The notes under the pieces were generated by a model. It was not told the DNA's origin and ran no database searches. It saw only the letters and a list, made by a program, of their open reading frames with translations. From Verrucomicrobiota bacterium (GTDB lineage Bacteria > Verrucomicrobiota > Verrucomicrobiia > Opitutales > Cerasicoccaceae): a stretch of 64,000 nt of DNA. A program made the translations under genes and the position numbers. Positions 7,284 through 35,088 of this stretch are shown here, one piece after another. Every line of letters starts with the position of its first letter. The first letter of the stretch is position 1. The DNA is taken from positions 53,192-117,191 of the forward strand of contig JBCBUK010000014.1 of assembly GCA_039818205.1 (NCBI GenBank), in the 5' to 3' direction.

Positions 7284-7293
7284 TCAAGTTGCC

Positions 7294-7332: not shown

Positions 7333-7361
7333 ATTGGCCCTAGTCGATATCAAATTTTGAA

Positions 7362-15613: not shown

Positions 15614-17098
15614 ATGCATAGAACAAAACCCCAGCTTTCGCGTAGAAACTTCCTCAAATCTAGCGCTGCAATCGGCGCATTTACGGTTTTACCATCCTAT
15701 ATCGCGCTTGGCAACAAATCTTCATCGGGTAATGCACCCAGCGAGCGCGTTCGTCTTGCAGTTATTGGTATCGGCCATCAAGGGAACGGAGATCGTAAAG
15801 CATTGATGAGCTCTAAGTTATGCGATGTTGTCGCGCTATGCGACATTGATATGTTGGGCGCACATACGCATGAAGCGCGATATACCCACGGTTTGACCAA
15901 TAAACCCCCCAAGATGAAAGACGGTAAGGCGGCACCCGCTCAAACCGCCATCAAGGCCCGTGGTTATCAGGATTTTCGCAAAATGTTCGACGAAATGGGC
16001 GACGATATCGACGCCGTTTTGATCGCCACTCCGGACCATTCCCACTTCGCTGCCGCCATGCTGGCGATGTCGCTCGGGAAACACGTTTACGTTGAGAAGC
16101 CCTTGGCGCACACCTTCGGCCAGACACAGCGTTTGATGGATATCGCCGAGCGCACGGGTGTTGCCACCCAAATGGGCAATCAGGGCCACTCAGGGGCCAA
16201 CTATTTTCAGTTCAAGGCCTGGCGCGAAGCAGGCATCATTAAGAACGTCCACCGTATCACCGCGCACATGAACAATTGGCGCCGCTGGCATGGCTGGGGG
16301 CAGGACGCCACCGAGTACCCTCAACAGGCCGTTCCCGAGGGCGTTGATTGGGATCAGTGGATCGACGTGGTCGCCCAAGAACGCCCGTTCAGCAACAAAC
16401 TGCATCCACAGGAATGGCGCAGCTGGTTCGAATACGGCAGCGGAGCCTTCGGCGACTGGGGACCGCACATCCTCGATACCTGCCACGAATTTTTGGAGCT
16501 CGGTTTACCTGAGAAAGTAACCGCGGTGAAACTGGAAGGACGCAACCCACTCGTTTACCCACAAGCATCCACCATCCGATTTAGCTTTGCCGAACGCGGA
16601 CCTGATCTGCCAGCTTGTGAAGTAACTTGGTATGATGGCCAAAAGAACTGGCCGCCGCTTGAACCCGAGCTAGGCGAGTTGGTCAAGGATCCCGCTACCG
16701 GCAAGGAAACCCGGAAGAAGCTCGAGCTGGGCGGTCCAGGAAAGATCATCTACTCGGATGACCTGGTCTTCAAGGGCGGCTCGCACGCGCGCCCACTCAC
16801 GATTGTGCCCAAGGAAAAATTCCTGGAAATGCGGAAGTCGCTGCCAAAGTTTCCCCAGAAGAACTCTAGCCACTACGCAAACTTCATCCTGGCCTGTAAG
16901 GGCGAGGAGGAGACCCGGTCCCCATTCAGCGTTAGTGGCGAACTGACTCAAGTCTTCAACCTCGGAGTTCTGGCCCAGCGATTTGGCGGGGAACTGGAGT
17001 TTGATCAGAAGACAAAAACGATTACGAACAATCCATCAGCCCAAGCATTGCTCGACCCAGCTCCGCGCAAAGGCTGGGAAGAATTCTACAGTCTCTAA
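15614..17098 (+). CDS. Tat-exported Gfo/Idh/MocA oxidoreductase
   Basis: SRRNFLK Tat motif, GIGHQG, IATPDHSH, YVEKPL, TQMGNQGHS, GAFGDWGPH. Confidence 0.92.
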   Translation: MHRTKPQLSRRNFLKSSAAIGAFTVLPSYIALGNKSSSGNAPSERVRLAVIGIGHQGNGDRKALMSSKLCDVVALCDIDMLGAHTHEARYTHGLTNKPPKMKDGKAAPAQTAIKARGYQDFRKMFDEMGDDIDAVLIATPDHSHFAAAMLAMSLGKHVYVEKPLAHTFGQTQRLMDIAERTGVATQMGNQGHSGANYFQFKAWREAGIIKNVHRITAHMNNWRRWHGWGQDATEYPQQAVPEGVDWDQWIDVVAQERPFSNKLHPQEWRSWFEYGSGAFGDWGPHILDTCHEFLELGLPEKVTAVKLEGRNPLVYPQASTIRFSFAERGPDLPACEVTWYDGQKNWPPLEPELGELVKDPATGKETRKKLELGGPGKIIYSDDLVFKGGSHARPLTIVPKEKFLEMRKSLPKFPQKNSSHYANFILACKGEEETRSPFSVSGELTQVFNLGVLAQRFGGELEFDQKTKTITNNPSAQALLDPAPRKGWEEFYSL

Positions 17099-17121
17099 CC
17101 CTTCCACCTTTACCTGATCCT

Positions 17122-17874
17122 ATGAAAACAATCCTTCTCACAGGCTTGTCCCTGCTGTGTACCCTGGGTGCATCCGCCAACCAGATATCGGCAGAACAGC
17201 AAAAATACGTCGACCAGTATAAGAAACAGAAACACATCGTTGCTCCAGAAGACGCACTCCTCAACACCGAGCCCGAGCCAAACCTAACCGAGGGGTTCAC
17301 GAACCTTTATAATGGGAAAAACCTCGATGGCTGGACTCCCCGTGGCGGTTTCTGCACCTTTGAAGCTGACGGCGATAGCATTCTGGGCACCTGTGTAAAA
17401 GGCTCCCCAAGCACCTACCTGTGCACCGACAAGGACTACAGCAATTTCATTTTCACCGCCGAGCTCAAATGGGAGGTCGATGGCAATAGCGGAATCCTCT
17501 ACCGCTCGCGCTACAAGACCAATCCCGACAAGGAGCACGAAATCGTCTACGGCCCTCAGTGCGAAATGGAAGGCTTTGCCCGCGATCGTCAGTGGTCCGG
17601 TGGAATCTATGGTCAAGGTACGGTCGCCTGGCAATATCCGCTGTGGCTGGAAGCTCACGAAGAAGCCCGCGCTGCCTTAAAGAAGGATGACTGGAACCGC
17701 ATCACCATCCAGGCCAACGGTCCCGTCATTAAGACGTGGATCAATGGCGTGCCTGCCGCACATTTTATTGACGACAAGTTTCTCGATGGCTTCTTCGGCC
17801 TTCAAGTGCACTCGGGGCACCAGGGTACCATTCGTTTCCGCAACCTAAAGGTCAAAGAGCTGGAACCACACTGA
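17122..17874 (+). CDS. Secreted DUF1080 (3-keto-disaccharide hydrolase/hydratase family) protein; probably the N-terminal half of a tandem DUF1080 gene
   Basis: Signal peptide, LYNGKNLDGW, GNSGILYR, WNRITI, GLQVH...FRNLKVKEL. Confidence 0.85.
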   Translation: MKTILLTGLSLLCTLGASANQISAEQQKYVDQYKKQKHIVAPEDALLNTEPEPNLTEGFTNLYNGKNLDGWTPRGGFCTFEADGDSILGTCVKGSPSTYLCTDKDYSNFIFTAELKWEVDGNSGILYRSRYKTNPDKEHEIVYGPQCEMEGFARDRQWSGGIYGQGTVAWQYPLWLEAHEEARAALKKDDWNRITIQANGPVIKTWINGVPAAHFIDDKFLDGFFGLQVHSGHQGTIRFRNLKVKELEPH

Positions 17875-18444
17875 AAGGATCTCTTTGCCAACAGTGACTT
17901 TTCTGAGTGGACCCAAGTGAATGGCAAACCGGTCGGTGGCGGTTGGTCCATCGAAGACGGCGTTATCCATCGCGGAAAGCTTATAGCGGGTTCTATCATC
18001 ACGAAGGAACACTACACGGACTTTGAGCTTATTTTTGACTGGAAGATTTCCGGCTCCGGCAACTCTGGTGTGAAGTATCGTGCGCGCAAAAACCTTGGCT
18101 TGGAGTATCAAGTGCTCGACGACAAGGGCCATCCCAACGGTAAAAATCCACTAACCCGTGCTGGGTCGATCTATGCACTATACCCGGCTTCGGACGACAA
18201 AACACTCAAGCCCGTTGGCGAATGGAATACCGGACGCATTCTCGTGCAGGGAAACCATGTTGAGCATTGGCTCAATGGCGAACAAGTCCTTGAAGCAGAG
18301 ATCGGCAGCGACGAATGGAAAAAACGTTTTGCGGCGAGCAAGTACCACAAACATGATGGATTTGGCACGTGGACCGGAAACATTCTCCTCCAGGATCATA
18401 GCGATCCCGTCTGGTACCGCAATGTTCGCATCCGCGAGCTTTAA
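17875..18444 (+). CDS. Second DUF1080 domain, in frame with the upstream ORF after a single TGA (first possible start GTG 17917)
   Basis: KDLFANSDFSEW...GNSGVKY...EYQVLDD...GEWNTGRI...LQDH...YRNVRIREL. No signal peptide or ATG of its own. Confidence 0.8.
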   Translation, partial: KDLFANSDFSEWTQVNGKPVGGGWSIEDGVIHRGKLIAGSIITKEHYTDFELIFDWKISGSGNSGVKYRARKNLGLEYQVLDDKGHPNGKNPLTRAGSIYALYPASDDKTLKPVGEWNTGRILVQGNHVEHWLNGEQVLEAEIGSDEWKKRFAASKYHKHDGFGTWTGNILLQDHSDPVWYRNVRIREL

Positions 18445-18479
18445 TCGACTCAAACTATCTCTCTACGACTGCGTTCAAC

Positions 18480-20084
18480 ATGAGCAACGAAAGCCCTCGT
18501 GAGGCCATTCTTGCTGCCCAGGAAAAAGGCGGCTTACACAAATTCCTGACCTACGCCAAGCTCTCCGGCCCCGGCTGGATGCAAGGCGCTATTACGCTCG
18601 GCGGCGGCTCGCTTGCTGGCGCAATGTATCTGGGCATTATCTCCGGCTTCGGGCTGCTCTGGTTGCAACCGCTGGCGATGATCTGCGGGATCATCATGCT
18701 CTCCGCGATTGCCTATGTCACGCTGTCAACCGAAGCCGCGCCCTTTGGTTTAGTTAACAAGCACCTGACACCTGCACTAGGCTGGGCTTGGCTAATTGCA
18801 ACCGTGATGGCCAACATCGTTTGGTGCATGCCTCAGTTCAATCTGGGCCGCGCAGCGATTCAGCAGAACCTGATACCCGCCGTCGGCGATGGTAACGTTT
18901 CAACGATCGTCATTTGCTTGATCCTCCTTGTCATCGCACTCGGAGTAAACGTGCTTTATGAGTCTGAGGGCAAGGGTCGCCAATTGTTTGACCTCATCAT
19001 CAAATGCATGGTGGGCCTCATTGTCCTATCGTTTATCCTCGTAGTGATTACTCTGGCGAGCAACGGCTTGATCGATGTCGGAGCCATCTTCGGCAACCTC
19101 ATCCCAGACCCCTCGCTACTGTTCAAACCGGCGGAAGGATACAGCGCCTTGATCGCTCAATCCAGCCAACCCGAGTGGTGGACGAATCGCATCGTCAACG
19201 ACCAACGCGACATCATCATAACCGCGTTCGGAACAGCCGTCGGCATCAACATGACCTGGCTGCTCCCCTACTCTCTGCTCAAAAAACGCTGGGGTAAAGT
19301 GGAGCGCGGTCTTTCGATTTTTGACTTATCAATCGGTTTGTTCGTGCCTTTCTTTTTGGCCACGAGCTGCGTCGTAATTGCCGCCGCATCCCAATTCCAC
19401 GCCAAGACACTTGATGTCCCTCCTGGCTCGGGTGACGAAACAATTGCGGCTCTCGTCGCCGCGCATCCCGGCGTTCCAAGTGAAGCGGACCAGTCCCTGG
19501 CTTTGATGCTCGTTAAGCGCGATAATTTCCAACTGGCAACCGCTCTGGAGCCCCTTGCTGGCAAAGCCGTTTCGCAATGGATTTTTGGCTTCGGTGTTTT
19601 GGGAATGGCGCTTTCTACCATCATCATCTTGATGCTCATGAATGGCCTTGCGTTCCAGGAACTGCTGGGGCAACGAGGCAAACCGGGTGAGAAGCGTGCG
19701 CACTATATCGGCTGTCTGATCTCTGGCCTCGCCGGATTTGTTGGTCCCTTCATCTGGACCGGAAAAGCCAAGGCCGCCCTGGCAATTCCAACCTCGGTAA
19801 TTGGTGGCTCGTTAATCCCGATCGCCTATTTCACATTCTTCCTAATGATGAACTCCAAGAAGGTCCTCGGAGACAATCGCCCAGAAGGCACTCAACGGAT
19901 CATCTGGAATGTCCTGATGGGCGGCGCAACCCTGATCGCCTCAATTGGTTCCGTTTGGGTCCTGTCGGGCAAGAGTCACTTTGAGAACTGGAAGGGTATG
20001 ATCCCGGCAGCGGGACTTGGTCTGCTTGTTGCCCTGTTCATTGTTGGAACGATTTCCTTTATCAAAAACGAGAAAGAGTCATGA
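18480..20084 (+). CDS. NRAMP-like (APC superfamily) transporter
   Basis: About 12 TM helices. SGPGWMQGAITLGGGS and TAVGINMT motifs of the PVC/Bacteroidetes NRAMP-like group. Confidence 0.75.
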   Translation: MSNESPREAILAAQEKGGLHKFLTYAKLSGPGWMQGAITLGGGSLAGAMYLGIISGFGLLWLQPLAMICGIIMLSAIAYVTLSTEAAPFGLVNKHLTPALGWAWLIATVMANIVWCMPQFNLGRAAIQQNLIPAVGDGNVSTIVICLILLVIALGVNVLYESEGKGRQLFDLIIKCMVGLIVLSFILVVITLASNGLIDVGAIFGNLIPDPSLLFKPAEGYSALIAQSSQPEWWTNRIVNDQRDIIITAFGTAVGINMTWLLPYSLLKKRWGKVERGLSIFDLSIGLFVPFFLATSCVVIAAASQFHAKTLDVPPGSGDETIAALVAAHPGVPSEADQSLALMLVKRDNFQLATALEPLAGKAVSQWIFGFGVLGMALSTIIILMLMNGLAFQELLGQRGKPGEKRAHYIGCLISGLAGFVGPFIWTGKAKAALAIPTSVIGGSLIPIAYFTFFLMMNSKKVLGDNRPEGTQRIIWNVLMGGATLIASIGSVWVLSGKSHFENWKGMIPAAGLGLLVALFIVGTISFIKNEKES

Positions 20085-21142
20085 AGTTCGGAATCATCGG
20101 CACCGGCATGATTGCCAATGTCCACGCGCATGCTATTCAGGACATGCCCAACGGCGAGCTTGTCGGGGTCTACGGCAGCAATCCAGCCAAGACAACGGCT
20201 TTGGCGGAGAAGTTTGGCGTAACGGCATTCTCGACTCTCGATGAGATGCTCAACGACGACTCGATCGATATCGTCACCGTCGCCACACCATCAGGTGCTC
20301 ACCTGAATCCGACACTCGCGGCAATTGCAGCCGGCAAGCATCTGGCGATCGAGAAGCCGCTCGAAATTACGACCGAACGGATCGACCAGATGATCGCAGC
20401 AGCCAAAAGCAAGGGTGTGATGCTTTCGGCCATTTTGAACCGCCGCTTTCACCCCGCCATGGGTGTTTTCAAGCAGGCGGCGGAGAACAACCGCTTTGGT
20501 CGGCTGACCTCGGCGTCGGCCTACATCAAATGGTACCGAGACCAGGCCTACTACGACTCTGGCGCCTGGCGGGGCACCTGGGAGCTTGATGGCGGTGGAG
20601 CGCTCATGAATCAATCAATCCACACGATCGACGCGCTGATTTACCTGGCTGGGCCCGTGAAGTCTGTCCAGGCAACCACCGCGTGCCTCGCCCATGAGAA
20701 TATCGATGTCGAAGACATTGGCGTCGCCGTAGTCGAATTTGCGAACGGAGCCCGTGGGGTCATCGAAGGCTCCACCTGCACCTGGTCGAAGGACGGGCAC
20801 CCAGCCCGGGTTCAACTCGCCGGTACCGAAGGTTCGGCGTTCCTCGCCGATGAGTCGTTCGAGGTGTGGGACTTCATGCATGAAACTGCTGAAGACGACG
20901 CCATCCGTGCTCAATATATGATGGGCGCGACTCCCGGCCTTGGTGCCAACGACCCGAAAGCGATCAATACGATTCAGCACCAGCGAAATTTTGAGGAAAT
21001 CGTTGCCGCGGTCCAGGAGAACCGTGCACCCAGTACCTCTGCCGAAACCGCGCGCCAAAGTGTTGAACTGATTGAAGCAATCTACCACTCTGCCCAAAAT
21101 AATGGCGAAAAAGTCGCGCTTTCTTCCGTCCTCGTTGGTTAG
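20081..21142 (+). CDS. Cytoplasmic Gfo/Idh/MocA oxidoreductase
   Basis: GIIGTGMIA, ATPSGAH, IEKPL, WRGTWELDGGGALMNQSIHTID. ATGA overlap with the upstream gene. Confidence 0.92.
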   Translation: MKFGIIGTGMIANVHAHAIQDMPNGELVGVYGSNPAKTTALAEKFGVTAFSTLDEMLNDDSIDIVTVATPSGAHLNPTLAAIAAGKHLAIEKPLEITTERIDQMIAAAKSKGVMLSAILNRRFHPAMGVFKQAAENNRFGRLTSASAYIKWYRDQAYYDSGAWRGTWELDGGGALMNQSIHTIDALIYLAGPVKSVQATTACLAHENIDVEDIGVAVVEFANGARGVIEGSTCTWSKDGHPARVQLAGTEGSAFLADESFEVWDFMHETAEDDAIRAQYMMGATPGLGANDPKAINTIQHQRNFEEIVAAVQENRAPSTSAETARQSVELIEAIYHSAQNNGEKVALSSVLVG

Positions 21143-21200
21143 GATGAGTTTAGATTATTTCACCAGCAGTGGTGGAAAACTGGTTTAACCTCGCCCAGAT

Positions 21201-21216
21201 TGACGATATATGACAA
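21201..21216 (+). promoter_or_regulatory. Candidate AraC-type binding site TGACGATATATGACAA
   Basis: 14/16 identity with 14111-14126. Lies in the AT-rich region upstream of the DoxX operon. Confidence 0.45.
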
Positions 21217-21463
21217 TACCGACCACTATCTATAGATAGCGTTTTATACCATTATCGGCAACCCACAGAGGTGACTACTTTTCCGTATACTCCTAAACAA
21301 CAATATTTTACATAGAAAAAAACCGTCTATTAAATTTACAATTATCGGCATTATTAGATTTTTTACACTTCCACTATTTGGTTGATTTATCGCCGTTTTG
21401 TTGCATCGATTGGTTTTTACACCCCCACACCCTTTCGCTTCACCCACATCACGATATACACCT

Positions 21464-21982
21464 ATGAGTTCAAACGAATCTGGCGGTAACGACCTAGGAC
21501 TAACCCTGGGAATGCTCACCCTCCGCATCTGGTTGGCAATGCGGTCCTTCCAAACCGGCCTCGAAAAGTATGCTGGTATGAAGGCCGACGACACCGCTGT
21601 CGAGTTAGATGGGGAACCCAACACCTACGGCCTGACCGAGGAGACCATGGAGAAAACCTACTCGTTTTCCGATTACCATGGCGTTCCCGCCGCCCTGGCA
21701 GACAAGTTCGCCAAGGAGCCCCTCATCCCTGGCTTTTTCCTGAAAATCTACGACGCCACCCTGGGACCCATCCTAATCATCCTGGGCATCACACTTCTCA
21801 TTGGCATCTGCACCCGCTTTACGCTGTTCGCTATGGGTCTGGTCTACTGCAGCCTGACTTTTGGTCTAATCCTCATCAAGCAAGACGCTGGCGTTGCCTG
21901 GCTCGGCATCCATATCATCATGGTTGTGCTGGCGCTCACGCTTGCAAGATACAATCGACTGGCTATAATGAATAAATTCTAG
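21464..21982 (+). CDS. DoxX-like membrane protein
   Basis: LRIWLAMRSFQTGLEKY motif then three more TM helices (GITLLIGICTR). Start at ATG 21464. Confidence 0.65.
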   Translation: MSSNESGGNDLGLTLGMLTLRIWLAMRSFQTGLEKYAGMKADDTAVELDGEPNTYGLTEETMEKTYSFSDYHGVPAALADKFAKEPLIPGFFLKIYDATLGPILIILGITLLIGICTRFTLFAMGLVYCSLTFGLILIKQDAGVAWLGIHIIMVVLALTLARYNRLAIMNKF

Positions 21983-22002
21983 CCACGTGACTCATACATA
22001 AG

Positions 22003-23412
22003 ATGAATAAGCAACAATCCCCTATCCACCGCCGCGATTTCCTCTCGAAATCCACGTTGGGAGCCGGGCTCTTGCTCGGTGCGCCCGCTATCCTGAAGGC
22101 CTCGACCTCTGACTCTTCAAAGGACGCTCCAGCAGCGTCCGGTGCTGACGACATTCGTGTTGGCTTTATTGGATGCGGGAAACAACACATCGTCCTCCGG
22201 GACGCGATGCTCGACCTGCCCGGTGTTCGCTACGTAGCGGCTGCCGACATTATGAAATCCCGTCTCCAAGAAACGACGGGCACGATCTACAAGAAATTTG
22301 ACTACCGTCCGAAGCCTTACCTGAGCGCCGAAGAGATGCTCGAAAAGGAAGACTTGGATGCCGTCTTCGTCGCAACGCCCGATTTCTGGCACGCACCGCA
22401 TACCGTGATGGCCCTTGAAGCCGGCTGCCACGTTTATTGCGAAAAGATGATGTCCAACACCATCGAAGGCGCGCGCAGCATGGTTGAAGCGATGGACCGC
22501 ACTGGTAAACTTTGCCAAATTGGTCACCAACGTCGCAGCAACCCACGCTATTTGTTCACCCTCAATGAGCTCATTCGCAAGAATCAGCTCTGCGGGCAAA
22601 TCGTGAACATCAACGGCCAATGGAACCGCTCGCTCTCTGCTTCGCAGCCGATCGGTGCTCAGATGAAGAAGTCGCTGCTGCCGAAGGATGATATCATCCA
22701 AGAGTATGGCTTTGCCGCAGGTGCCGAAGGCAAACTAAGCAAAGAAGACCTGCAGGACCGCTTCCTCAACTGGCGCTTCTACAAGGCCCTCTCTGGCGGA
22801 CCCATCTCCGACCTTGGTGCCCACCAGATCGACATCTTCAACTGGTTCCTGGGCACTCAACCCACCTCGGTCATGGCATCGGGCGGGCACAATTACTTCA
22901 AGGACCGCGAACACTTCGACAACGTGATGTGTGTATTCGACTACGATACACCCGATGGCGGTGCCCGCGCATTCTACCAAGTGTTGACCACGACGAGCGC
23001 TGGCGGCGGCTACTACGAGTCCTTCATGGGCACGGATGGCACCATCGAAATCTCGGAGCGCGAAGCCTACACGAACATTTACAAGGAATCGGGAGCCGAC
23101 GGCAAAAAGTGGGACGACCTCGTTCGCCGTGGATACCTCAAGAAAGAAGCTGACGGGAAGGCCGCGGGCGGCGCAGACGCAATCGCGTCCTACGCATCGG
23201 CTCCACCCGACAAATATGCCCTACCGGGCGGCTTGAACAAGCCACCGCACCAGCCGCATATTGCAAACTTCTTGGCGGCAATTCGTGGAGAAGCGAAGTT
23301 GACGTGTGATGCCCGTCATGCCTTAGAATCCGAAGCTCCCATTTATTGGGTCAACCCGGCTGCTGAAAACCGGGGAACTATCATTCTTACTGAAGAGCAC
23401 CTGCATACCTAA
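22003..23412 (+). CDS. Tat-exported Gfo/Idh/MocA oxidoreductase
   Basis: [47 protein letters not shown]...HQIDIFNW. Confidence 0.92.
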
Positions 23413-23416
23413 CGAT

Positions 23417-24142
<726 letters not shown>

Positions 24143-24164
24143 GCTCAACAGCCACTTTTTATGC

Positions 24165-24196
24165 AAAAGGACACCGCTCGAGCGGTGTCCTTTTTT
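24165..24196. terminator. Bidirectional terminator (perfect 30-bp palindrome)
   Basis: AAAAGGACACCGCTCGAGCGGTGTCCTTTT between convergent operons. Confidence 0.85.
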
Positions 24197-24244
24197 GTTA
24201 AATCGGTTTACCGGAGTTCCTCGCTCCAGCATCGGGCACTCTAG

Positions 24245-25078
24245 CTATTTGGCGCGATTGACCGACTGTACTTGGGCGCTGCGATCAATATTTAGATTGG
24301 CGGCGCGGCCGTCTTCATCATCGGGAATGTAGACGATCAGCTTATTACACAGGTCGAGGTGCGCTTTCACATCGTCGCCGGTGGTGAAGGTCAAACAGTG
24401 GCCTCCAAAGTCCTTGGCGTCATTGAGAAAGTGGAGGTGGAAGCCTGGTGGGTTGAGCGTCGAGGCGTACTGCGGATAGTAGAAGCCAACCAAGCTGCCC
24501 TTAACATCATCTTGTTCGAAGATGGACTGAACCTTGGTGATATCCGCCAGGCTCGGGTAAGGTTTCTCGTTCTGCTTGGGGATACTGCGGCACTTCATAT
24601 ATTTGAAGGTGCCCGAAATCTGGATCGCGTAGGGTGTGTTGATGTTCGGGAGCTGTTTCTCCACAAACTTCGAAACCTCATCGTAGGTCAACCCCTCTGG
24701 AATATCGATCACTTGATCTGGCTGGAAGTTGGCCATCGTGATGTAAGGCGTCGTGGCGCTGTACGGCATCTCGTGCACCTTGCCATCGTAATCAATTTGG
24801 TAGATGACCCCATCAATCATGTAGAGCTCACCGTCGAGCTTATCGAAAGTGCCGAGACCAAAATTTCCGTAAGGTCTCAGCTCTTCGAAGCTGACGGATC
24901 CATCATACAGACCGGCAAGGAGACCGTTGTAGGACGACACTTGAGTCACACAATTGCGATGGAGATCAAGTGTCTCGTGCGAGCCCGCAGGCTTCGGTTC
25001 GCTGTGCGGCGCTTTGGCAAAGCAGGCAGCAGCGAGCGTTAAGGCGACAAAGGAGAAGAGATAATTGTTTCGAACCAT
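24245..25078 (-). CDS. budA: Alpha-acetolactate decarboxylase family protein with N-terminal signal peptide
   Basis: QVSSYNGLLAGLYDG, GNFGLGTFDKLDGE, GSLVGFYYP, Zn ligands GFHLHF...GGH. Confidence 0.88.
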   Translation of the reverse strand: MVRNNYLFSFVALTLAAACFAKAPHSEPKPAGSHETLDLHRNCVTQVSSYNGLLAGLYDGSVSFEELRPYGNFGLGTFDKLDGELYMIDGVIYQIDYDGKVHEMPYSATTPYITMANFQPDQVIDIPEGLTYDEVSKFVEKQLPNINTPYAIQISGTFKYMKCRSIPKQNEKPYPSLADITKVQSIFEQDDVKGSLVGFYYPQYASTLNPPGFHLHFLNDAKDFGGHCLTFTTGDDVKAHLDLCNKLIVYIPDDEDGRAANLNIDRSAQVQSVNRAK

Positions 25079-25148
25079 AGGAGTGATTGAGTTCGAAGAA
25101 TAGATACGACCTTTGCCGCCATAAGGCTAGCCCGAATATATCAACACT

Positions 25149-26441
25149 CTAGGTCTTGATGCGGATCTCTTTCGCTTCGCCTTGAATTGCTGGCACCTCT
25201 TCCGGCAGAACAACCTCACCGCGCTCAAAGTCGATTGGGCGAGGCGACATCTCCATCGAGTAGAACGGTGATTTCTTGTTCTCAGTAAGATCAACCCAGC
25301 GAATAAATTTTCCAGTGTATGCAGACATGCGACCACCGATCGCCGCCAGGCTCGCTTCGGCGATTTCCTGTGCTCCGTTGATGGGCTTATCCGTGCGGAT
25401 CGCCCGAATCAATTCAACCTGCTGCTGGATATTGCCATCATCAAATTCCTGCTCGATTGGATCAATTGAAACCTCTTTGCCGACGACCTTCATTCCGTTG
25501 GTGTAACCATCGACGCCGCGGAAGGTTTCTCCGACCCGATTGTAGCAACCGCTGATTTGACGGCACTGGCTTTGAACGTGAATGCCATCACCGTAGTCAC
25601 AATCGACGGCAAAGAAGTCGAACTGGTTACCGGTTTCACGGCGAGCGCGACCACCCATTCCCATAAATGAGATCGGATTTCGGCCCAGATACCAACGGGC
25701 GATGTCAAACTGGTGGACGTGTTGCTCGGCAATATGATCGCCTGAGAGTTCAACGAAGTTGAGCCAGTTGCGGGTAATGTAGTCGGCATCACTTTGGCCC
25801 GGCTGACGGGGTGAAATCCAAGGCACTTGACCATTCCAATAGATGCTTCCGCCAACGATCTCTCCGATCGCGCCTTGGTCAATCTTGGCCTTTTGCTCAC
25901 GGTACTTCTTATCGGAGCGGCGCTGCGTGCCAACGCCAATCGAAAGCCCCTTGTGGTCAGCCAACTCGCCCAGCTCCATGACCTTTCTTGCGCCGACTGG
26001 ATCCACGGCAACGGGCTTCTGCACAAACAAATGCTTGTCCGCATTCAGGCAGGCCTCCATATGCAACGGTCGGAAATTCGGTGGAGTCGCCATGAGGACC
26101 AGTTCAGCATCCGATTCGGCAACCTTATGGTAGGCATCGAAGCCGACATGTCCCACCGCAGGATCAATCTGATGCTTTTCCGCGAAGGCTTTTACACGAT
26201 CGGCAAACGGATCCGCGATTGCCACGAATTCGGGTTCGATGCCCAAAATCTCACAGGCCTTGCGGACCTGCCAAACATCGCCACCACTGCGGCCTCCGCA
26301 ACCGATAACACCGACCTTGAGTTTGCTGGTGTTTAGGCCGTTGTTTGTTTGCGCTCCAAGAATGTTAAAGCTGGCAACCGCGGCCGAGCCGAGTGCAGCT
26401 GTCTTCACAAAATTACGTCGGGTGAGGTTATACGTGTTCAT
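25149..26441 (-). CDS. Tat-exported Gfo/Idh/MocA oxidoreductase
   Basis: TRRNFVK, GVIGCGGR, ATPPNFRP, VQKPVAVD, GTQRR, SGDHIAEQHVH. Confidence 0.92.
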   Translation of the reverse strand: MNTYNLTRRNFVKTAALGSAAVASFNILGAQTNNGLNTSKLKVGVIGCGGRSGGDVWQVRKACEILGIEPEFVAIADPFADRVKAFAEKHQIDPAVGHVGFDAYHKVAESDAELVLMATPPNFRPLHMEACLNADKHLFVQKPVAVDPVGARKVMELGELADHKGLSIGVGTQRRSDKKYREQKAKIDQGAIGEIVGGSIYWNGQVPWISPRQPGQSDADYITRNWLNFVELSGDHIAEQHVHQFDIARWYLGRNPISFMGMGGRARRETGNQFDFFAVDCDYGDGIHVQSQCRQISGCYNRVGETFRGVDGYTNGMKVVGKEVSIDPIEQEFDDGNIQQQVELIRAIRTDKPINGAQEIAEASLAAIGGRMSAYTGKFIRWVDLTENKKSPFYSMEMSPRPIDFERGEVVLPEEVPAIQGEAKEIRIKT

Positions 26442-26457
26442 TATTGTATTGGCTTAA

Positions 26458-27243
26458 TTATTTGCTGCGAACGTTCTCGCTAACGGGTTTCCCTGCAGCC
26501 CACAGGAAGCCACGGGTAAGCATGTCCATGTAGTTTGGATCGAGCATCGTTTCATTGTGATGCCCAATCGACGTGGCGAAAACACGGGTCTTATTGGGGC
26601 CGTATTCATTCACCCAAACAGTCGAATGAGATTCTCCATTCTTCTCCGAGGTCGATTCCGCTAACGAAGTCATGGTCGGATAGATGGTCTTAATAAAATA
26701 GAGTTCGCCCTGCGGAGTGGTCCAATTGCTCATCCCCTCCGTGATCTCGTGATCAGGGTTCACGATCCGGACTTCGAACGGGTGCTTGGCGCCATGTCCC
26801 GGCGAATGGACGCCGCAGAACTTCCACCAGTCTTCAGCGGTCGAGCCCTCGCGATAGCAATGCATCGAGCAATGGATCATCACGGCAGGCACACCATCAA
26901 GGTGTGGTTGCAGAATACCGGCAATATACTCCTCGTCGCTAATGTGGGCAAAACACTCGTTGTGCACAACGACATCATAGCCTTTGGCCCAATCGGGATT
27001 CTTATAGAAATCAAGCAACACATCGCCTGCTTTCGTTCGCTGGTGCAATATCGTCCATTGAACTCGAAGCTTGGAGTTATCATCGATGCCACTAGGAATA
27101 ATCTCCTGCTGCGTATCGTAGTCATGGCAGCAGCCACCGGTAATCAGAAGTGCTTTAACATCCGGCTTTGGGCTTGGCTTGGGCTTTGCCACCAAACTAC
27201 TGGCGACAAAGAAACTAAGCATGAGGGTAACAATGATCTTCAT
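26458..27243 (-). CDS. Secreted ThuA-like (trehalose utilization, GATase-fold) protein
   Basis: Signal peptide, [25 protein letters not shown]...[14 protein letters not shown]...RGFLWA. Confidence 0.85.
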
Positions 27244-27250
27244 GGTAAAA

Positions 27251-28804
27251 TTAGCCGTCTTTCTTGGGTTTTGGATAGTCTTGATTCAATTCCATATCGG
27301 CCTCACTCGGAGTCCGTGACTCGACGCCCTTCTCAGGCACTTCTGACTTTGCAGTCCAAAGTAATGCGTTAAGCACCGTCTTTCGAAAATCGTCGTGCAT
27401 CCAGTTTTGATGAAAGTGTCCTCCGGTAAAACCGAAGGCGCGCCCGCCATCGGGCCGATCATAGGCCCAGGCAACCACCTGCGGTTTTCCTGCCTTAACC
27501 TCCGAGAGTACGGTTGGATTGCTACCGCGATTCTTATCTTTGGATCGCGAGGTTAAACTACGAACCGGTGGCAGAGCGGAGAGAATCGGTGTGACACCAG
27601 CCATTTCGGGTTGAAACCGCATATGATAATACCACTCGTCGCGGATCGTAAACGGCTCCACGCCCTGGGTGATCGGATGATCGGGAAACTCGGTGAATTC
27701 AGCATCCCAATGTGGGTTCACCGACCAACCAATCTCAAAGTATCCACCCATCCAATCCAAAAATGTCGGCCCCAATACCTCCGGCTCAACCTCGACCGCA
27801 AAGTGTAGGCAGGCCACTCCGACACCGTCATCGACCAAGGCTTGAATCTTGTCTTGATGCTTCTTTGCCATGTGCCCTTTAAACCCGTCACAATACATTA
27901 CCACCGTATCCGGTTGTTGGTAGCCAACCCATCGCTGCGGCCACTCGCCTTCGGTCACCACTTGAGCAACGACATCGGTATTGCTTTCATTCAAACTTCG
28001 GGCCAAGAGCAAACTTCCCGCCTTGTGTTCGTGTGCGTTGTAACCGTGACTTTTCTCTCCGGCCAGAAACAGGATTTCTTTCTTATCCTCAGGCTCAAGC
28101 ACGCGCAACTGAATGTTACGGAAACGCACTTGCATCGGTGGACCCTGATGCAACTGCAATGCGATTAGACCGTCTTCCAAACGATCATCGGCATTCTCGG
28201 AAAACTCTGAAACCACGACTCCGTTGATCTTCTGGATACATTGGTTACCCCGAGCGATGATGTGGTAGGTATTCCATCCATCAAGATCGATGGCCTCAAG
28301 GATCTCATCAGCATCGCCCACGCGGGCGACAACCTCAACGTCTCCCTTCTTCGATCCGACAACCGTCTTCTCACCGCGCCTAGCGAGCACACCCTTGTGG
28401 CGTTCGCCATAGGCGGCGCCCATCCACTGAGGATCTTCGGCGATATCGGCCTGATACCCACCGACGACCCATTGGCCCTTTTCTTCAACCGGGAAACTGC
28501 GGTATTGAATCCCGCTGTTGTGGTTAACCAACTTAAAATCGACCTTGAGCTCGAAGTCTTTAACGTTGTCACCCTCCCAGATTAGAAAGGTGTTCGCGGG
28601 CGTGCGGTTATCTGCCGTGGTTTCGCCAACAATGTCACCATCTTCAACGCGCCAAAACTTGGGATCGCCATCCCAACCATCCAACGTCTTTCCATCAAAC
28701 AGCTCGACGAAAACACTGTCATCAGCAACGGCGACAGCCACGCCAAGCAGGCTTGGCAGCAGCCAAGTCAATGCTCGTTTGAAATGGGGTTTGGAGAAAA
28801 ACAT
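27251..28804 (-). CDS. Secreted DUF1080 + ThuA-like fusion protein
   Basis: [40 protein letters not shown]. Then LAGEKSHG...HEH, CLHFAVE, HPITQGV...[18 protein letters not shown]. Confidence 0.88.
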
Positions 28805-28808
28805 AGAA

Positions 28809-29684
28809 CTACACTTCGACTCGTTTCGAGTTCTCGATGGCTTTCCATTTGGTTCTTAAAAACTGTAAGCCTTCGGTCGCCAATTGTTCCGGACTATCGT
28901 AAAGCTGTCGCCAAATCGAGGCTGCTTTGGCAATAACATGATTCTCCTCCGAGAAACTCTCGATGATGATGTCTCCATCGTAATCGATATCCGAGAGTGC
29001 GCCCAAAACACCATCCCAGTCGACCTGGTCATGCCCGAGAAGACCACGATGGCTCGCACTCGCGTGGACGTGGCCAATTAAACTACCCGCCTGGCGAATC
29101 GCCTCTCCGGAGTCCATCTCCTCGATATTCATGTGAAACGTATCGAGGTGGATCTTCAGCGCATTACTTCCCACTTCGTTGATTAGTTCTGTGGCCTGCC
29201 CCAAGGTGTTGATGCAGTCGGTTTCAAAGCGATTGAGCGGCTCCAGCGCCAATATAACACCTGCATCTTCTGCTTTCGCACAAAGTGGGCGGAGTGCGTC
29301 ACAGATCTGTGCCCGTTGTCGCGCCCGCTCCGATTCCGTATGCGAACCGGTGCGGCCGGTCTCCGAATAGAATGGCCCACAGATCACCTTCGAATTCAAG
29401 CTGACGGCAAGGTCGATCAACTCACAAACATAGTGAACCGTGGCCGCGCAGTCCTGCGGCGAACCCCGAAGATCACGACCTGGACCAAAGGCGCCGCAGA
29501 TCACAGGCTCATCAAGCCCAGCAACTTCCAACTGATCCTTGAGCCGGATCGGATCAACCGATTCTGGATCAACAATGGCCAGCTCCACGGCCTCAGCCCC
29601 ATAAGACTTGAAGGTCTCAATCAAGGGTAGATCCGCATTGGTAAAACCAGGACTGACGAGAAAGGTATTTAAGCCAAATCGCAT
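28809..29684 (-). CDS. Sugar phosphate isomerase/epimerase (D-tagatose/psicose 3-epimerase-like, AP-endonuclease-2 TIM barrel)
   Basis: LALEPLNRFE, HLDTFHMNIEE, HVH...HRG, IIESF metal-binding motifs. Confidence 0.9.
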   Translation of the reverse strand: MRFGLNTFLVSPGFTNADLPLIETFKSYGAEAVELAIVDPESVDPIRLKDQLEVAGLDEPVICGAFGPGRDLRGSPQDCAATVHYVCELIDLAVSLNSKVICGPFYSETGRTGSHTESERARQRAQICDALRPLCAKAEDAGVILALEPLNRFETDCINTLGQATELINEVGSNALKIHLDTFHMNIEEMDSGEAIRQAGSLIGHVHASASHRGLLGHDQVDWDGVLGALSDIDYDGDIIIESFSEENHVIAKAASIWRQLYDSPEQLATEGLQFLRTKWKAIENSKRVEV

Positions 29685-29727
29685 AAGGTAACGGTGATAA
29701 GCTTACACGAAATAGGAGTAATATAGC

Positions 29728-29743
29728 TTGTAAATATTCCGCA
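29728..29743 (-). promoter_or_regulatory. Candidate AraC-type binding site TGCGGAATATTTACAA
   Basis: Lies in the short divergent gap between the epimerase operon and the PAS-AraC gene. Same TG-N10-ACAA frame as the other sites. Confidence 0.4.
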
Positions 29744-29778
29744 ATTTTGTGTATAGATTCGGCAACCCGCTAATTGTC

Positions 29779-30525
29779 ATGCCTCAACTGGAATCCGTCG
29801 TCGATCGCTCGGAATACGATCCAACCTCCATCTTGGCTCTATTTTCCGCCTTAAAGGACGTGTATCTATTCATAAAGGATCGAGACGGGTGCTTCATTGG
29901 GGCAAATGCCCTGCAGCTCGAAAAACTCGGGCTGAAGTCGGAAAACGAACTCATTGGCAAAACGGATTTCGATTTTTTTCCGAGCTACATGATCGCCCAC
30001 TACGCGCAAGACGACGCGAAGGTGATGCGCGATGGCGAACCGATCCTGCAACGGGTGGAGCTCGTGGCCAACCCCGATGGCTCAGTGTCCTGGCACGTCA
30101 CGAGCAAATTCCCCCTACGTGATCGGTCGGGTGATTGCATTGGCATCATTGGCTGCATGCGCGATTTCGTCCGAAGCGACAGCGCTTGGCAACCCTACCG
30201 CAGCATGAACGATGTCGTGGGCTACATCAACGAACACTATGCGGACTCCATTGAGATCGCGGACCTGGCTAAGATTGCTGGCTTGTCCGTCAGTCAATTT
30301 GAACGCCGCTTCAAAAGCGTTTTCCAGAAAACCCCGACAAGGTTCCTGATCCAATATCGCCTAACCTGTGCTAGCCGTTTGCTGATCAACACCAACGATA
30401 CCCTCAGCAGTATCGCCCACGAAGTTGGTTTCTATGACCACAGTCACTTTTCTCGCGAGTTCCAGAAACTGTTCGGAACTCCTCCGGGCGTCTATCGCCG
30501 GGAGCACAGCGCCAGCGCCTCATGA
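29779..30525 (+). CDS. AraC-family regulator with N-terminal PAS domain
   Basis: FIKDRDGCF...GKTDFDFFP...DDAKVM...TSKFPL and IAHEVGFYDHSHFSREF. Start at ATG 29779 (alternative GTG 29749). Confidence 0.9.
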   Translation: MPQLESVVDRSEYDPTSILALFSALKDVYLFIKDRDGCFIGANALQLEKLGLKSENELIGKTDFDFFPSYMIAHYAQDDAKVMRDGEPILQRVELVANPDGSVSWHVTSKFPLRDRSGDCIGIIGCMRDFVRSDSAWQPYRSMNDVVGYINEHYADSIEIADLAKIAGLSVSQFERRFKSVFQKTPTRFLIQYRLTCASRLLINTNDTLSSIAHEVGFYDHSHFSREFQKLFGTPPGVYRREHSASAS

Positions 30526-32048
30526 AGCAGAGTCTGACCTACATTTCTCTGTGGTTTGGCGTTCTGTTTGTTGGTCTATTCCTAAGGTCCGATGATCTGC
30601 TCGATCGGCCCATCCACTTCGATGAAGCAACCGGCGCACGCCTCTTGGGCAAACACCTTGAAGGCAATGGGTTCGATTTCAACCCGCAGCATTTTCACGG
30701 GCCCATACTAGCATACGTCACCGCGCCAATCGCCAAGGCGCGCGGGGAAAACTCCTGGGCAGAGCTTTCATTAACCACGCTGCGTGTTAGCCCCATCATC
30801 GCGGGCATGCTCCTCATCATCACGCCGCTGCTTTGGATTCGGGAGATTGGCCACCGCGCCACACTCGCCTCCAGCCTGTTTATCGCAACCTCGCCGTTGA
30901 TCGTCTACTACAACCGTATGTTCATCCACGAAAGTTGGCTGGCCTTGTTTGGAATGATCTCCGCAGCATTGCTTTTTCAACTGCTGTGCAAACCAACATT
31001 GCGCATCGGCGCTCTTACGGGTTTGGCGATGGCGCTCATGTTTGCCACCAAGGAGTCCTTTGCAATCTCGGTGCTTAGCTGGGGCGGAGGTATCGTGATC
31101 TACCTGGGCTACCGATTTTTTACCCGGGATAGCAATCCGATCAAGGATTGGAAACTCTACTTTAAACCTGGAATCGCCCTCGTGGTGGTCGGTTTCCTCG
31201 TCTCCGCGTTTTTCTACACCGATGGATTCCGCAACCCCAAGGGTATCGTCGATGCCGTGATGACCTACTTTGTCTACGAGACAACCGCAGGCCACGACAA
31301 AGCGTTTACCTATTATCTGGAATTGTTGCTCTGGCCCAAACATCTGCTCGGTCAGTGGTGGAGTGAGGGCTTGATTGCGATACTCGCATTGGTCGGGATC
31401 GTTCTTGCAGTCGTCCGCAAACACCAATCACGGGGACCCATTCTTTTCGTCTCCGCGATCGTCGTCGGGCATTTCCTCATCTACAGTCTGATCGGTTACA
31501 AAACTCCCTGGCTGATGGTACTGCCATGGTGCTACGCCTGCCTCCTGGCCGGTATGGTATTTCATGCGGCCAGCGGGTTGCGTCCGATTTCTGAATGGGG
31601 CCTGTATTTGGTAACTGCACTCGCACTCGTTTTCCAGATCGCCCAAAGCCGCACAAGTAGCGGACGCTTTGCTAACGATTTCCGCAATCCCTATACCTAC
31701 GTTCCTACCAGTAAGAACGCGCAGCAAATTGGCTCTTGGTTGAGCACGGTCGATTCGACAATTCAACCGCTCGGAACGATTGCCATCATCGGTCAGGAGT
31801 ATTGGCCGCTGCCATGGTATTTGCGGCAGTTTGAATCCGTTGGTTACTGGGCAGAGCTCCCCGCTGAAGCTGAGAATTTTTCAGTCTTGATCGCGACACC
31901 CTCAAAGTCGGCCGAAGCCGACGCCATGCTTGAGGCAACACACACCGCCTTGCCCCATGGCTTGAGGACAAACGTTGCCGTAACCATCTATCTAAAGAAC
32001 GATCTCTGGGACCAATGGATCCATCGACCCGAAACAGTGGACCGATAA
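30522..32048 (+). CDS. TIGR03663-like GT-C (PMT/GT39-like) membrane glycosyltransferase
   Basis: RPIHFDEA, FHGP, SPLIVYYNRMFIHE, MFATKES, GHDK...YY, YKTPW, YWPLPWYLR. Multiple TM helices. Confidence 0.8.
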   Translation: MKQSLTYISLWFGVLFVGLFLRSDDLLDRPIHFDEATGARLLGKHLEGNGFDFNPQHFHGPILAYVTAPIAKARGENSWAELSLTTLRVSPIIAGMLLIITPLLWIREIGHRATLASSLFIATSPLIVYYNRMFIHESWLALFGMISAALLFQLLCKPTLRIGALTGLAMALMFATKESFAISVLSWGGGIVIYLGYRFFTRDSNPIKDWKLYFKPGIALVVVGFLVSAFFYTDGFRNPKGIVDAVMTYFVYETTAGHDKAFTYYLELLLWPKHLLGQWWSEGLIAILALVGIVLAVVRKHQSRGPILFVSAIVVGHFLIYSLIGYKTPWLMVLPWCYACLLAGMVFHAASGLRPISEWGLYLVTALALVFQIAQSRTSSGRFANDFRNPYTYVPTSKNAQQIGSWLSTVDSTIQPLGTIAIIGQEYWPLPWYLRQFESVGYWAELPAEAENFSVLIATPSKSAEADAMLEATHTALPHGLRTNVAVTIYLKNDLWDQWIHRPETVDR

Positions 32049-32860
32049 ACCATCGCTTCGATCATGAGGCGATGAAAACGACTTTTTCTTTGCGGATAGG
32101 TTGCGAGGATCGCTCGTTGGCTTTAGCCGCAGCGAGCGAGTGCATCGATCAGATTGATCAGATAGAAAACAAACTAAGCCGCTATTTGCCTGGGAGCGAT
32201 ATCTGGCAGATCAACCACCTCAACGCAGGTGAGTCGCTCTTTGTTAGCGAACTTACCTACGAGTGTTTGCGACTCGCTCTTGAGGTCTATCAGGAAACCC
32301 AGGGCCTGTTCGACATCACCCTGGGCCAGCAGATAGAACACCGAAAAAATGAACAAGGCGGACCCCTTCCGGCATTAAGCGGTCAACTCATGATCGACCC
32401 CGATCGACCTCGAGTTCACTGCGTCGAGGCGGGGCGACAGATCGACCTCGGTGGCATTGGAAAAGGCTTCGCTCTGGACCACTTGATGAAAATTTTGCGC
32501 GACGGCGGTATCAGCTCGGCCCTGCTGGCAGCTGGCGCAAGCACCCAATTGGCCCACGGAGCCACACCATGGCCGATTCAGCTAACCGGCCAGACGGGAA
32601 CGACAACGATCGACCTGGTCAACCAATCACTTAGTGCGTCCGGCACGGCCATTCAAGGGAGCCATATTATTTCCCCTTACGACCAAGAGAGTGCCTACCC
32701 AAGAGAGAACATCTGGCTGGTCCACGACAGCGCAGCCAAGGCTGATGCCTACACGACTGCCGCCTTGCTCATGCCGGACGATATGCTTGCTGAGTTCGCG
32801 GAATCAGTTGCTGCCATTTACTTGGAAACCACCGACGGAATCACAACCCTAAGAAGCTAG
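32015..32860 (+). CDS. apbE: FAD:protein FMN transferase (ApbE family), no signal peptide
   Basis: EAMKTTF, LSRY...SDI, TQGLFDIT, IDLGGIGKGFALD, HIISP, ADAYTTA. Confidence 0.88.
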   Translation: MDPSTRNSGPINHRFDHEAMKTTFSLRIGCEDRSLALAAASECIDQIDQIENKLSRYLPGSDIWQINHLNAGESLFVSELTYECLRLALEVYQETQGLFDITLGQQIEHRKNEQGGPLPALSGQLMIDPDRPRVHCVEAGRQIDLGGIGKGFALDHLMKILRDGGISSALLAAGASTQLAHGATPWPIQLTGQTGTTTIDLVNQSLSASGTAIQGSHIISPYDQESAYPRENIWLVHDSAAKADAYTTAALLMPDDMLAEFAESVAAIYLETTDGITTLRS

Positions 32861-33000: not shown

Positions 33001-34011
33001 ATGAAACTCGAAATTCCTAAGATCGTTTTTGGATCCAGCTCGCTGGGTAACCTTTACGAAGTCGTACCCTACGAGCGAAAGCTGGCGACTATTGAAAACT
33101 GCATCCGCCACCAATCGCCTTTGACGGTGATTGACTCGGCCGGGAAATACGGTGCTGGCCTCTCGTTGGAATGCATCGGCCGGACCTTGTCCGATCTAAA
33201 CGTTGCCCCGGATCGAGTGTTGATCAGCAATAAGTTAGGGTGGAAGCGTGTGCCCTTAACTGGCCCTGAGCCGACCTTTGAAAAAGGTGCCTGGTTTGGG
33301 CTCGAGAACGACGCAGTCCAATGCATGGGCTATGATGGAATTTTGGAGTGCTACGAGCAAGGCAATGAGCTGCTCGGAGACTACACCGCTAAGCTGCTCT
33401 CCGTGCACGATCCCGATGAATACCTTGCTGCGGCTCCCAATGCGGAGGAAGCCGAGTCTCGCTATCAGGAAGTCCTGGAAAGCTACCGCGCCCTTGCGGA
33501 ACTCAAGGCTGCTGGCAAAGCCTATGGCATTGGAGTTGGCTCCAAGGATTGGACCATTATCAAGCGCCTGTTTGACGACCAAGTGCCGCTGGACTGGGTC
33601 ATGTTTGCCAACACGTTCACCCTCTACTCACATCCAGCTGACGTCATCGAGTTCATATTGCAACTCCATGAGGCTGGCGTCTCGATCATCAATTCGGCCA
33701 TTTTCAACGGTGGATTTTTGATCGGTTCGGAGTGGTATAACTATAAACCGGTCACCCGGGAATCGCACGCGGAGCTTTTCGCCTGGCGGGATAGCTTCAA
33801 TGCCTTGTGCGATGAGCACAACGTGAAGCCTGCTTTGGCTTGCGCCGAATTTGGCCTGTCTGTGCCTGGCATTGCGGCGCTTGCTCTTAACACCACAAAG
33901 CCCGAGCGCGTGGAAAAGAACGTCGCCCTCGTCAATGAAAAGGCACCTGCCGCCTTCTGGGCTGCGATGAAAGATAAACAACTGCTTGAAGCCGACTACC
34001 CTTACCTCTAA
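33001..34011 (+). CDS. Aldo/keto reductase, D-threo-aldose 1-dehydrogenase (L-galactose/L-fucose dehydrogenase)-like
   Basis: [43 protein letters not shown]. Start at ATG 33001. Confidence 0.8.
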
Positions 34012-34040
34012 AAATTCTCCTCTCATTTTACCAAAAGCCC

Positions 34041-35060: not shown

Positions 35061-35088
35061 TCCTTCCCCCCGCAAGAAACCCAAGACC

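Follow-up and report, generated by a model that had tools for sequence, protein, structure and literature searches.

The question raised by this locus is how an exported sugar dehydrogenase of the Gfo/Idh/MocA family is recharged. A region of about 17 kb (15614-32860) in the 64,000-nucleotide stretch analyzed here (the window), from contig JBCBUK010000014.1 of a Verrucomicrobiota bacterium, encodes several such enzymes. A periplasmic enzyme with bound nicotinamide adenine dinucleotide (NAD) has no free NAD pool, and the paper on the 3-keto pathway, cited here like the other papers for its available text, leaves open how a Gfo enzyme exported by twin-arginine translocation (Tat) is re-oxidized in the cell (10.1101/2024.03.25.586180). 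The original prediction took the whole region as a single, expanded periplasmic 3-keto-glycoside pathway inside a red-algal galactan locus. We found a mosaic instead, the conserved core of which consists of a DoxX-like protein, a Tat-signal Gfo enzyme (Gfo3), an F5/8-type (discoidin-like) lipoprotein, a TIGR03663 GT-C protein and a signal-less ApbE-type transferase of flavin mononucleotide (FMN). Our preferred reading, held with somewhat better than even confidence, is that this core is a periplasmic, membrane-coupled sugar dehydrogenase with FMN on Ser399 of Gfo3 and with the DoxX-like protein, or a cytochrome in relatives, as the exit to quinone. If true, the module would be a concrete answer to the recharging of exported Gfo enzymes.

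A five-gene core in a mosaic region

Families were assigned with Pfam and NCBIfam scans and Tat motifs and the lipobox were taken from a motif scan; export of the Gfo enzymes and of the F5/8 protein is predicted from these motifs. All core genes lie on the plus strand: the DoxX/MauE-like four-helix membrane protein (21464-21982), Gfo3 (22003-23412), the F5/8 lipoprotein (23417-24142, lipobox LSGC), the Agl23-like TIGR03663 protein (30522-32048) and ApbE (32015-32860). The scans bore out the inventory proposed earlier: three Gfo/Idh/MocA enzymes with an RRxF Tat motif (15614-17098, 22003-23412 and 25149-26441) and a fourth that lacks it (20081-21142), three DUF1080 domains, a ThuA domain and a second one fused to DUF1080, an AP_endonuc_2 barrel, the F5/8 lipoprotein, TIGR03663 (137.2 bits against a cut-off of 126.25), ApbE (PF02424, 118.8 bits) and an Nramp match (66.8 bits), with no glycoside hydrolase family matched within 15614-32860. 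The genes of the region fall into three transcription directions.

Related loci were taken as the DNA around 17 DoxX-like matches and around 80 F5/8 relatives, the best of 582 in species genomes; the F5/8 loci are thus the closest relatives and not a random sample. Where enough upstream DNA was available, DoxX-like and Gfo3 genes stand upstream of F5/8 in 56 of 58 loci. Twenty-eight loci were well flanked, with 9 kb or more on each side; among these, Gfo3 and the DoxX-like protein are each found in all 28, TIGR03663 in 14, ApbE in 13, DUF1080 in 9, PAS-AraC in 7, Nramp in 5 and MFS in 4; ThuA and the TIM barrel occur in 1 each, the same locus (L047), and the decarboxylase, the AKR and UxaE in none. 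Many relatives have an uninterrupted DoxX-Gfo3-F5/8-TIGR03663-ApbE order with PAS-AraC and MFS genes divergent upstream. In the window this cassette is preceded by an inserted block A (ROK, Gfo1, tandem DUF1080, Nramp-like, Gfo2) and interrupted by an inserted block B (decarboxylase, Gfo4, ThuA, DUF1080-ThuA, epimerase); block A adjoins the core in only 5/28 loci. The 17 kb is not a single cluster or expanded pathway, and both blocks, which hold the remaining Gfo, DUF1080 and ThuA genes, are additions that vary between loci.

Co-occurrence was examined with profiles in 151 genomes of the phylum Verrucomicrobiota, at least 90% complete and including the genome of the window. Gfo3 is present in 26 genomes, F5/8 in 25 and the DoxX-like protein in 22, the latter two exclusively in Gfo3-positive genomes. 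The GT-C protein (E<1e-60) was detected in 29 genomes, 25 of them Gfo3-positive, with weak matches in 5 more, and this type of ApbE (E<1e-45) in 25, of which 24 are Gfo3-positive. In G112 an ApbE gene with a score just below the cut-off was found by its locus beside GT-C, and by locus and profile together 25/26 Gfo3 genomes carry this ApbE type. Within families the presence of core genes varies in step (8-9 of 15 genomes in f34, 4 of 8 in f22), and the genes co-occur even where they are split across distant loci or contigs. The co-occurrence of DoxX, Gfo, discoidin, TIGR03663 and ApbE that the original prediction had proposed to check was near one-to-one across this sample. We concluded that the five core genes are one unit. 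The nearest named relatives of the Gfo3 protein are from Opitutales and other Verrucomicrobiota. The module is present in 26/151 sampled genomes of a phylum of polysaccharide degraders, and the approximately 18 Gfo3-related genes of this genome could depend on it.

Two variants of the cassette were also seen. A second DoxX-like and Gfo3 pair without F5/8 lies at G000:C5:241864-243834 (L035) and keeps the loop serine discussed below, and in L225, L227 and L228 the F5/8 genes are tandemly duplicated directly ahead of TIGR03663.

The DoxX-like protein and a seven-haem cytochrome in its place

The earlier label "DoxX" can be kept as "DoxX-like" for the family, in which 11/16 members gave weak DoxX and MauE matches (best E 2e-5 and 3e-7, respectively); the window protein itself (172 amino acids) has no Pfam match at E<=1, and a PDB sequence search with it found nothing useful. 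Its proposed role comes from a swap between genomes. In a second phylum, that of G206 (labelled Planctomycetota), F5/8 was found in 14/201 genomes and 18 surrounding regions were examined, 8 of which hold Gfo3. Only one of these 8 has the DoxX-like gene; in the other 7 a cytochrome with seven CxxCH motifs adjoins Gfo3 or ApbE, and a protein of 4-5 helices, with a weak cytochrome b561 match in 3 of 5 tested, comes next or is fused to it. In the 151 Verrucomicrobiota genomes the same cytochrome is present in five, G067 and the four (G124, G129, G138 and G159) that are exactly the Gfo3 genomes without the DoxX-like protein. All 26 Gfo3 genomes hold one of the two, the DoxX-like protein in 22 and the seven-haem cytochrome in 4, and none holds both.

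The main evidence that the DoxX-like protein is the electron exit is this replacement: because a haem wire to the membrane stands in its place in relatives, we infer a redox role, with the exit predicted on the quinone side. The idea of DoxX and ApbE as an electron-exchange or cofactor module is strengthened by the co-occurrence and by the cytochrome c/b561-like replacement, and the exact exchange with a haem protein would provide a redox assignment for the DoxX-like family.

The cytochrome c of approximately 630 amino acids and its b561-like partner, fused in some cases, were seen in L222, L224, L227, L229, L230, L232, L236, L200, L203 and L217; apart from weak c7/MtrC matches the cytochrome belongs to no named family. 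One DoxX-like homologue (L033:9908-11230) carries a soluble insertion of more than 200 amino acids in the first loop.

Candidate flavin site and rival readings

Gfo3 keeps E147-K148, Q176, R209, D270 and H274. The likely FMN attachment site is Ser399 (codon 23197-23199), a non-canonical candidate within D-x-R/S-x-S/T in a loop of variable length (residues 385-402, 23155-23208, plus strand). The Ser399 position is Ser or Thr in 16/16 aligned members, in 74/74 close homologues (75 open reading frames, one of which is a loop-less fragment) and in 8/8 Gfo3 proteins of the second phylum, the last two sets read by eye. Because aligners can stack serines, we took representatives at 50% identity and recounted at set distances from a conserved proline column: Ser or Thr stands at offset -9 in 40/64 distant homologues versus 3-14 of 64 at the remaining 18 offsets. 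A canonical [ST]GAT is present in the same loop in 3/30 more distant relatives. In the Gfo3 model (predicted local distance difference test score, pLDDT, 95) Ser399 lies between two strands in the least confident stretch. A loop of AL3, perhaps its counterpart, reaches the active site of the partner subunit (10.1101/2024.03.25.586180).

The ApbE protein retains the Ser-His-Asp triad named for this family (PMC12052999), with S209 and H217 invariant and D244 in at least 90% of 31 sequences, as well as DLGGIGKG. Among 44 copies, 32 stand directly behind the GT-C gene and 3 are fused to the C-terminus of the GT-C protein, and reading the N-termini of the 41 separate copies revealed in none of them (0/41) the lipoprotein export signal that is common, though not universal, among ApbEs. 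Averaged over 54 sequences, hydropathy and Lys/Arg bias suggest 11 transmembrane helices in the GT-C protein with the N-terminus in and the C-terminus out, placing the invariant D34-E35, E137, H258, YKTPW and WPxP outside; D34-E35 is kept in at least 95% of the 54. PDB sequence searches with the GT-C and F5/8 proteins found nothing useful. By this topology the ApbE part of the fusions would be periplasmic; a separate copy would either do its work in the cytoplasm ahead of Tat export or be carried out together with Gfo3. Cytosolic ApbEs exist (PMC12052999). The natural fusions, all three from the second phylum and approximately 845 amino acids long, are at L229:5839-8373, L230:9379-11910 and L232:9545-12082. 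A programmed frameshift joining GT-C and ApbE was considered and rejected: the relative frames are 22/8/2 among 32 adjacent pairs, and ApbE is often elsewhere.

In the preferred reading, Gfo3 would be exported by Tat with bound NAD and would oxidize a sugar hydroxyl, likely at C3. ApbE would attach FMN to loop Ser399, and the flavin would take up the electrons of the trapped NADH and hand them to the membrane exit, here the DoxX-like protein and in relatives the seven-haem cytochrome c with cytochrome b, from which they would reach the quinone pool. The F5/8 lipoprotein may act as a tether or bind substrate. The GT-C protein would be a required partner of ApbE, most likely presenting ApbE or the flavin on the periplasmic side. 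One class of "orphan" ApbEs would then have its substrate in Gfo3; an earlier survey was left with 670 orphan genomes (PMC8238504). A wider form of this reading, in which GT-C and the divergent ApbE deliver FMN, possibly carried by a lipid, to a non-canonical serine on a swinging loop and exported Gfo enzymes of Verrucomicrobiota and Planctomycetota in general are recharged via quinones by way of the DoxX-like protein or the seven-haem cytochrome, would amount to a new path of protein flavinylation and of NADH oxidation in the periplasm; it appears to us quite improbable at present.

Several observations count against the preferred reading. The DoxX-like family has no invariant His or Cys and no redox ligand residues, and the best fold match of its model (pLDDT 85) is an assembly chaperone, NACHO/TMEM35A (Z 13.4, root-mean-square deviation 3.3, 127 aligned residues). 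The nearest solved or characterized relative of Gfo3 is distant (best E 1e-19), the fixed-offset Ser/Thr signal is gone in the farthest group (3/27), and the canonical acceptor motif, D-x-x-[S/T]-G-A-[S/T] (PMC12052999), is in none of the core proteins of the window; the canonical FMN motifs of this genome lie elsewhere, one of them adjoining another ApbE on contig C2. Two surface segments of solved ApbEs are shortened or missing in this ApbE, which might transfer something else; their loss could go with another acceptor motif or another donor. The compartment signals of ApbE conflict, since 41/44 copies are separate and signal-less and 3 are fused to a predicted periplasmic domain. G181 lacks GT-C and ApbE, its F5/8 gene being at a contig edge, G077 has GT-C and ApbE without Gfo3, and G067, an assembly of 580 contigs, has the seven-haem cytochrome without Gfo3. 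The profiles were derived from neighbours of the module and related genomes are not independent, and for these reasons the counts are given without a P value.

The NACHO match would fit an alternative in which the DoxX-like protein is a mere membrane anchor or assembly factor and the co-occurrence stems from a shared mobile island. The DoxX-like, F5/8 and Gfo1 genes were found in none of five same-genus genomes (one 72% complete), and because of this absence the copy in the window looks recently gained. However, the core genes keep company even when split over distant loci or contigs, and the replacement by a haem protein is exact across 26/26 Gfo3 genomes. We regard this alternative as extremely unlikely.

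The electron circuit could also be real with its flavin elsewhere, for example on Thr61 of the F5/8 lipoprotein, or bound non-covalently, Ser399 being structural or glycosylated by the GT-C protein. Thr61, in the conserved N-terminal arm G60-T61, is invariant in 15/15 sequences and present in at least 90% of 76, but no swap to Ser was seen there, unlike at position 399, and ApbE tracks Gfo3 even in G112, where no F5/8 was found. Glycosylation of Ser399 is favoured by the DE motif and the outward-facing invariants of the GT-C protein; moreover, TIGR03663 relatives in module-less genomes often adjoin glycosylation-type genes (DUF2298, exosortase or sugar-nucleotide genes). On the other hand, no glycosyltransferase partner was seen in the module, though none was looked for. 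This arrangement of the flavin is unlikely in our view, if the most serious of the competitors.

A further alternative is a lipid relay: in the cytoplasm, ApbE would charge a polyprenyl carrier with FMN or another phospho-group, and the Agl23-like protein would flip the loaded carrier and pass the group on to periplasmic Gfo3. It was suggested by archaeal Agl23, which translocates lipid-linked glycans in proteoliposomes (PMC11182771), and it would be in keeping with the position of ApbE directly behind GT-C or fused to it and with the missing signal of the separate copies. By the hydropathy topology, however, the fusion puts ApbE outside, where cytoplasmic loading would make no sense, and no carrier is needed to modify a Tat substrate ahead of its export. 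We know of no precedent for a lipid-linked flavin and consider such a relay very unlikely.

Known systems, add-on enzymes and neighbouring genes

LacA is a flavin dehydrogenase of the GMC type. The cytochrome c-dependent glycoside 3-dehydrogenases LacABC and ThuAB (PMC8121099) likewise bring about a net oxidation of sugars in the periplasm that is linked to respiration, whereas in the core the catalytic unit is an NAD-type Gfo, the exit is the DoxX-like protein or the seven-haem cytochrome, and no catalytic family is held in common. Like ApbE-flavinylated extracytosolic systems (PMC8238504; PMC11334425; PMC12052999), the core has an ApbE gene alongside an exported redox protein, and its presumed electron-transfer part in the membrane is exchangeable, a linked cytochrome c/b pair or DoxX-like protein being present in 26/26 Gfo3 genomes. 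The core differs from them in having no FMN_bind, DUF2271 or DUF3570 substrate, no canonical motif, and an ApbE that is signal-less or fused to GT-C. The module works like ApbE-type extracytosolic electron transfer and like LacABC, but lacks the motif and the signal of the ApbE type. Agl23 of Haloarcula hispanica (PMC11182771) is in the same NCBIfam family, above the cut-off, with the same GT-C layout, but its partner is the glycosyltransferase Agl22, whereas that of the window protein is ApbE; this would be the first bacterial context for an Agl23-type GT-C protein. In the openly available literature searched, no paper on the module was found. "Dox" and "Gfo" are missing from the available main text of PMC8238504 and "Dox" from that of PMC11334425; the gene-cluster tables of both papers could list the module. 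The five-gene circuit is likely undescribed.

Block A is the part closest to the 3-keto chemistry first proposed. It would fit the non-Koshland AL1-4/BT2156-2159 systems (10.1101/2024.03.25.586180; PMC8121099), which have a Tat-exported Gfo with tightly bound NAD, a DUF1080 lyase/hydratase and a cytoplasmic second Gfo. Gfo1 (15614-17098, plus), a BT2158/AL3-related protein like glycoside 3-dehydrogenases, matches the AL3 structure 8tdf (E 9e-48) and retains four of the six named AL3 pocket residues (Q161, W195, D248 and H252; the equivalents of R192 and Y349 differ). Against the NCBIfam equivalog NF058561 it scored 276 bits, under the cut-off of 750, and Gfo3 and Gfo4 scored 50 and 35 bits. 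Gfo2 (20081-21142, plus), predicted cytoplasmic, groups with WlbA-type C3 dehydrogenases (nearest 3q2i/3q2k). The 3-keto assignment is partly supported for Gfo1 and the DUF1080 domains and does not extend to the TIM barrel (28809-29684) as an exported lyase: 22 of 24 PDB matches are labelled epimerases, ketose 3-epimerases being the best, and the protein has no signal peptide. The original prediction also had the Nramp-fold protein (18480-20084, plus) importing metal or sugar. In Nramp Mn/Fe transporters, DPGN is the metal-binding motif in the first transmembrane helix. The window protein has GPGWMQGAITLGGGS where DPGN would stand, which argues against metal import; it likely imports a sugar product.

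In block A, Gfo1 and the DUF1080 protein would split glycosides in the manner of the AL/BT system, with an oxidation and an elimination, the Nramp-like protein would import the keto sugar and Gfo2 would reduce it inside, blocks A and B being sugar-specific add-ons of 3-keto-glycoside type with the core circuit as net oxidant. The AL/BT system is recycled by its own 3-keto product, with no membrane or flavin parts in the available text; in the window the TIM barrel is of the ketose 3-epimerase type, and a separate Gfo subfamily is tied to the DoxX-like protein or cytochrome, ApbE, F5/8 and GT-C. Import of the keto sugar and its reduction inside would deprive the periplasmic cycle of its oxidant, and the cycle would then have to rely on the core circuit. 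When no re-oxidant is supplied, purified AL/BT3 comes to a stop, and proteins were raised as possible re-oxidants (10.1101/2024.03.25.586180).

Alternatively, the whole 17 kb may be a redox-neutral 3-keto-glycoside pathway for red-algal galactans with the membrane genes as accessories. This accounts for the AL3 match of Gfo1 and for the DUF1080 domains, and porphyranase-domain, GH16, GH2, sulfatase and UxaE genes are present in the window. Yet the core occurs mostly without blocks A and B and in 28/28 loci without AKR or UxaE, the TIM barrel is of the ketose 3-epimerase type, the AL enzymes are not inhibited by galactosides in the text available (10.1101/2024.03.25.586180), and a redox-neutral cycle leaves the cytochrome swap unexplained. 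We consider it highly unlikely, and the empty AKR and UxaE counts give the proposed galactan-specific role no support; the galactan link is positional and seen in this genome only. Three genes in a row at 33001-36333 (plus), an AKR, a Zn-dependent dehydrogenase and UxaE, may be for L-galactose catabolism, with no database match to confirm it and nothing useful from a PDB sequence search with the AKR.

The tandem DUF1080 gene of block A (17122-18444, plus) had been listed as two open reading frames, which together form one frame with just one stop in it, the TGA at 17872-17874: the frame 17122-17874 stays open beyond it through a full second domain. We slightly favour programmed read-through at this candidate site. 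Of 15 junctions tried, 14 could be read and one was not located; the position, usually a Trp codon, is TGA in 4 (the window, L041, L130 and L198), TGG in 6, TAY in 2, TTC in 1 and TCA in 1. Three of the four TGA junctions have CAC TGA AAG GAT CTC TT in common and the fourth has another context. The common context is kept although the proportion of synonymous differences (pS) among these three genes, 0.75-0.80, is near saturation; that of nonsynonymous differences (pN) is 0.13-0.25, and 0.03-0.10 over the first 13 codons past the TGA, which fits purifying selection on the downstream frame. The three have no common start codon there, and no common hairpin was found. Against read-through, 10/11 full-length matches from the 401 genomes of the order are plain fusions with no stop, and trees leave a single versus multiple origin of the TGA undecided. 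Selenocysteine is unlikely, as fused forms have Trp, Tyr, Phe or Ser at this place, and the filtered ARAGORN output shows only tRNA-Trp(CCA). The domain past the TGA has the full BT2157 residue set (N, E-x-Q, Y, K, Q-x-H, read by eye as GNSG, EYQ, SIY, SKY and LQDH) and the first domain carries the variant QCE. If read through, the exported first domain would gain this second domain, a rare case in a cellular bacterial gene.

Block B is on the minus strand between F5/8 and TIGR03663, with Tat-signal Gfo4, ThuA, DUF1080-ThuA and the epimerase-family barrel at 25149-29684. The acetolactate decarboxylase (24245-25078, minus), overlooked earlier, has a signal-like N-terminus and is an insertion outside the module, the sole copy found in the genome. 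Also overlooked was a PAS-AraC regulator (29749-30525, plus), which overlaps the start of TIGR03663. A second such regulator, at 13320-14093 (minus), 37% identical, likely regulates the core, and its counterpart is divergent from the DoxX-like gene in close relatives; the two flank the module on both sides, and a third paralogue, on contig C9, also adjoins a Gfo gene. They are possible flavin or redox sensors. The ROK-family protein (14289-15503, minus) is likely the regulator of block A, which it also adjoins in L049. Scans for promoters and terminators gave counts no different from chance (13 versus 13.4 and 25 versus 21.3, respectively). Among the algal-glycan genes of the window, three proteins are without a Pfam family, those at 47128-48636 (minus), 6495-7892 (plus) and 38340-40505 (minus), the last with a partial match to an alpha-galacturonidase model. 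Elsewhere in the genome, G000:C1:377972-426784 is an open frame of 16,270 codons.

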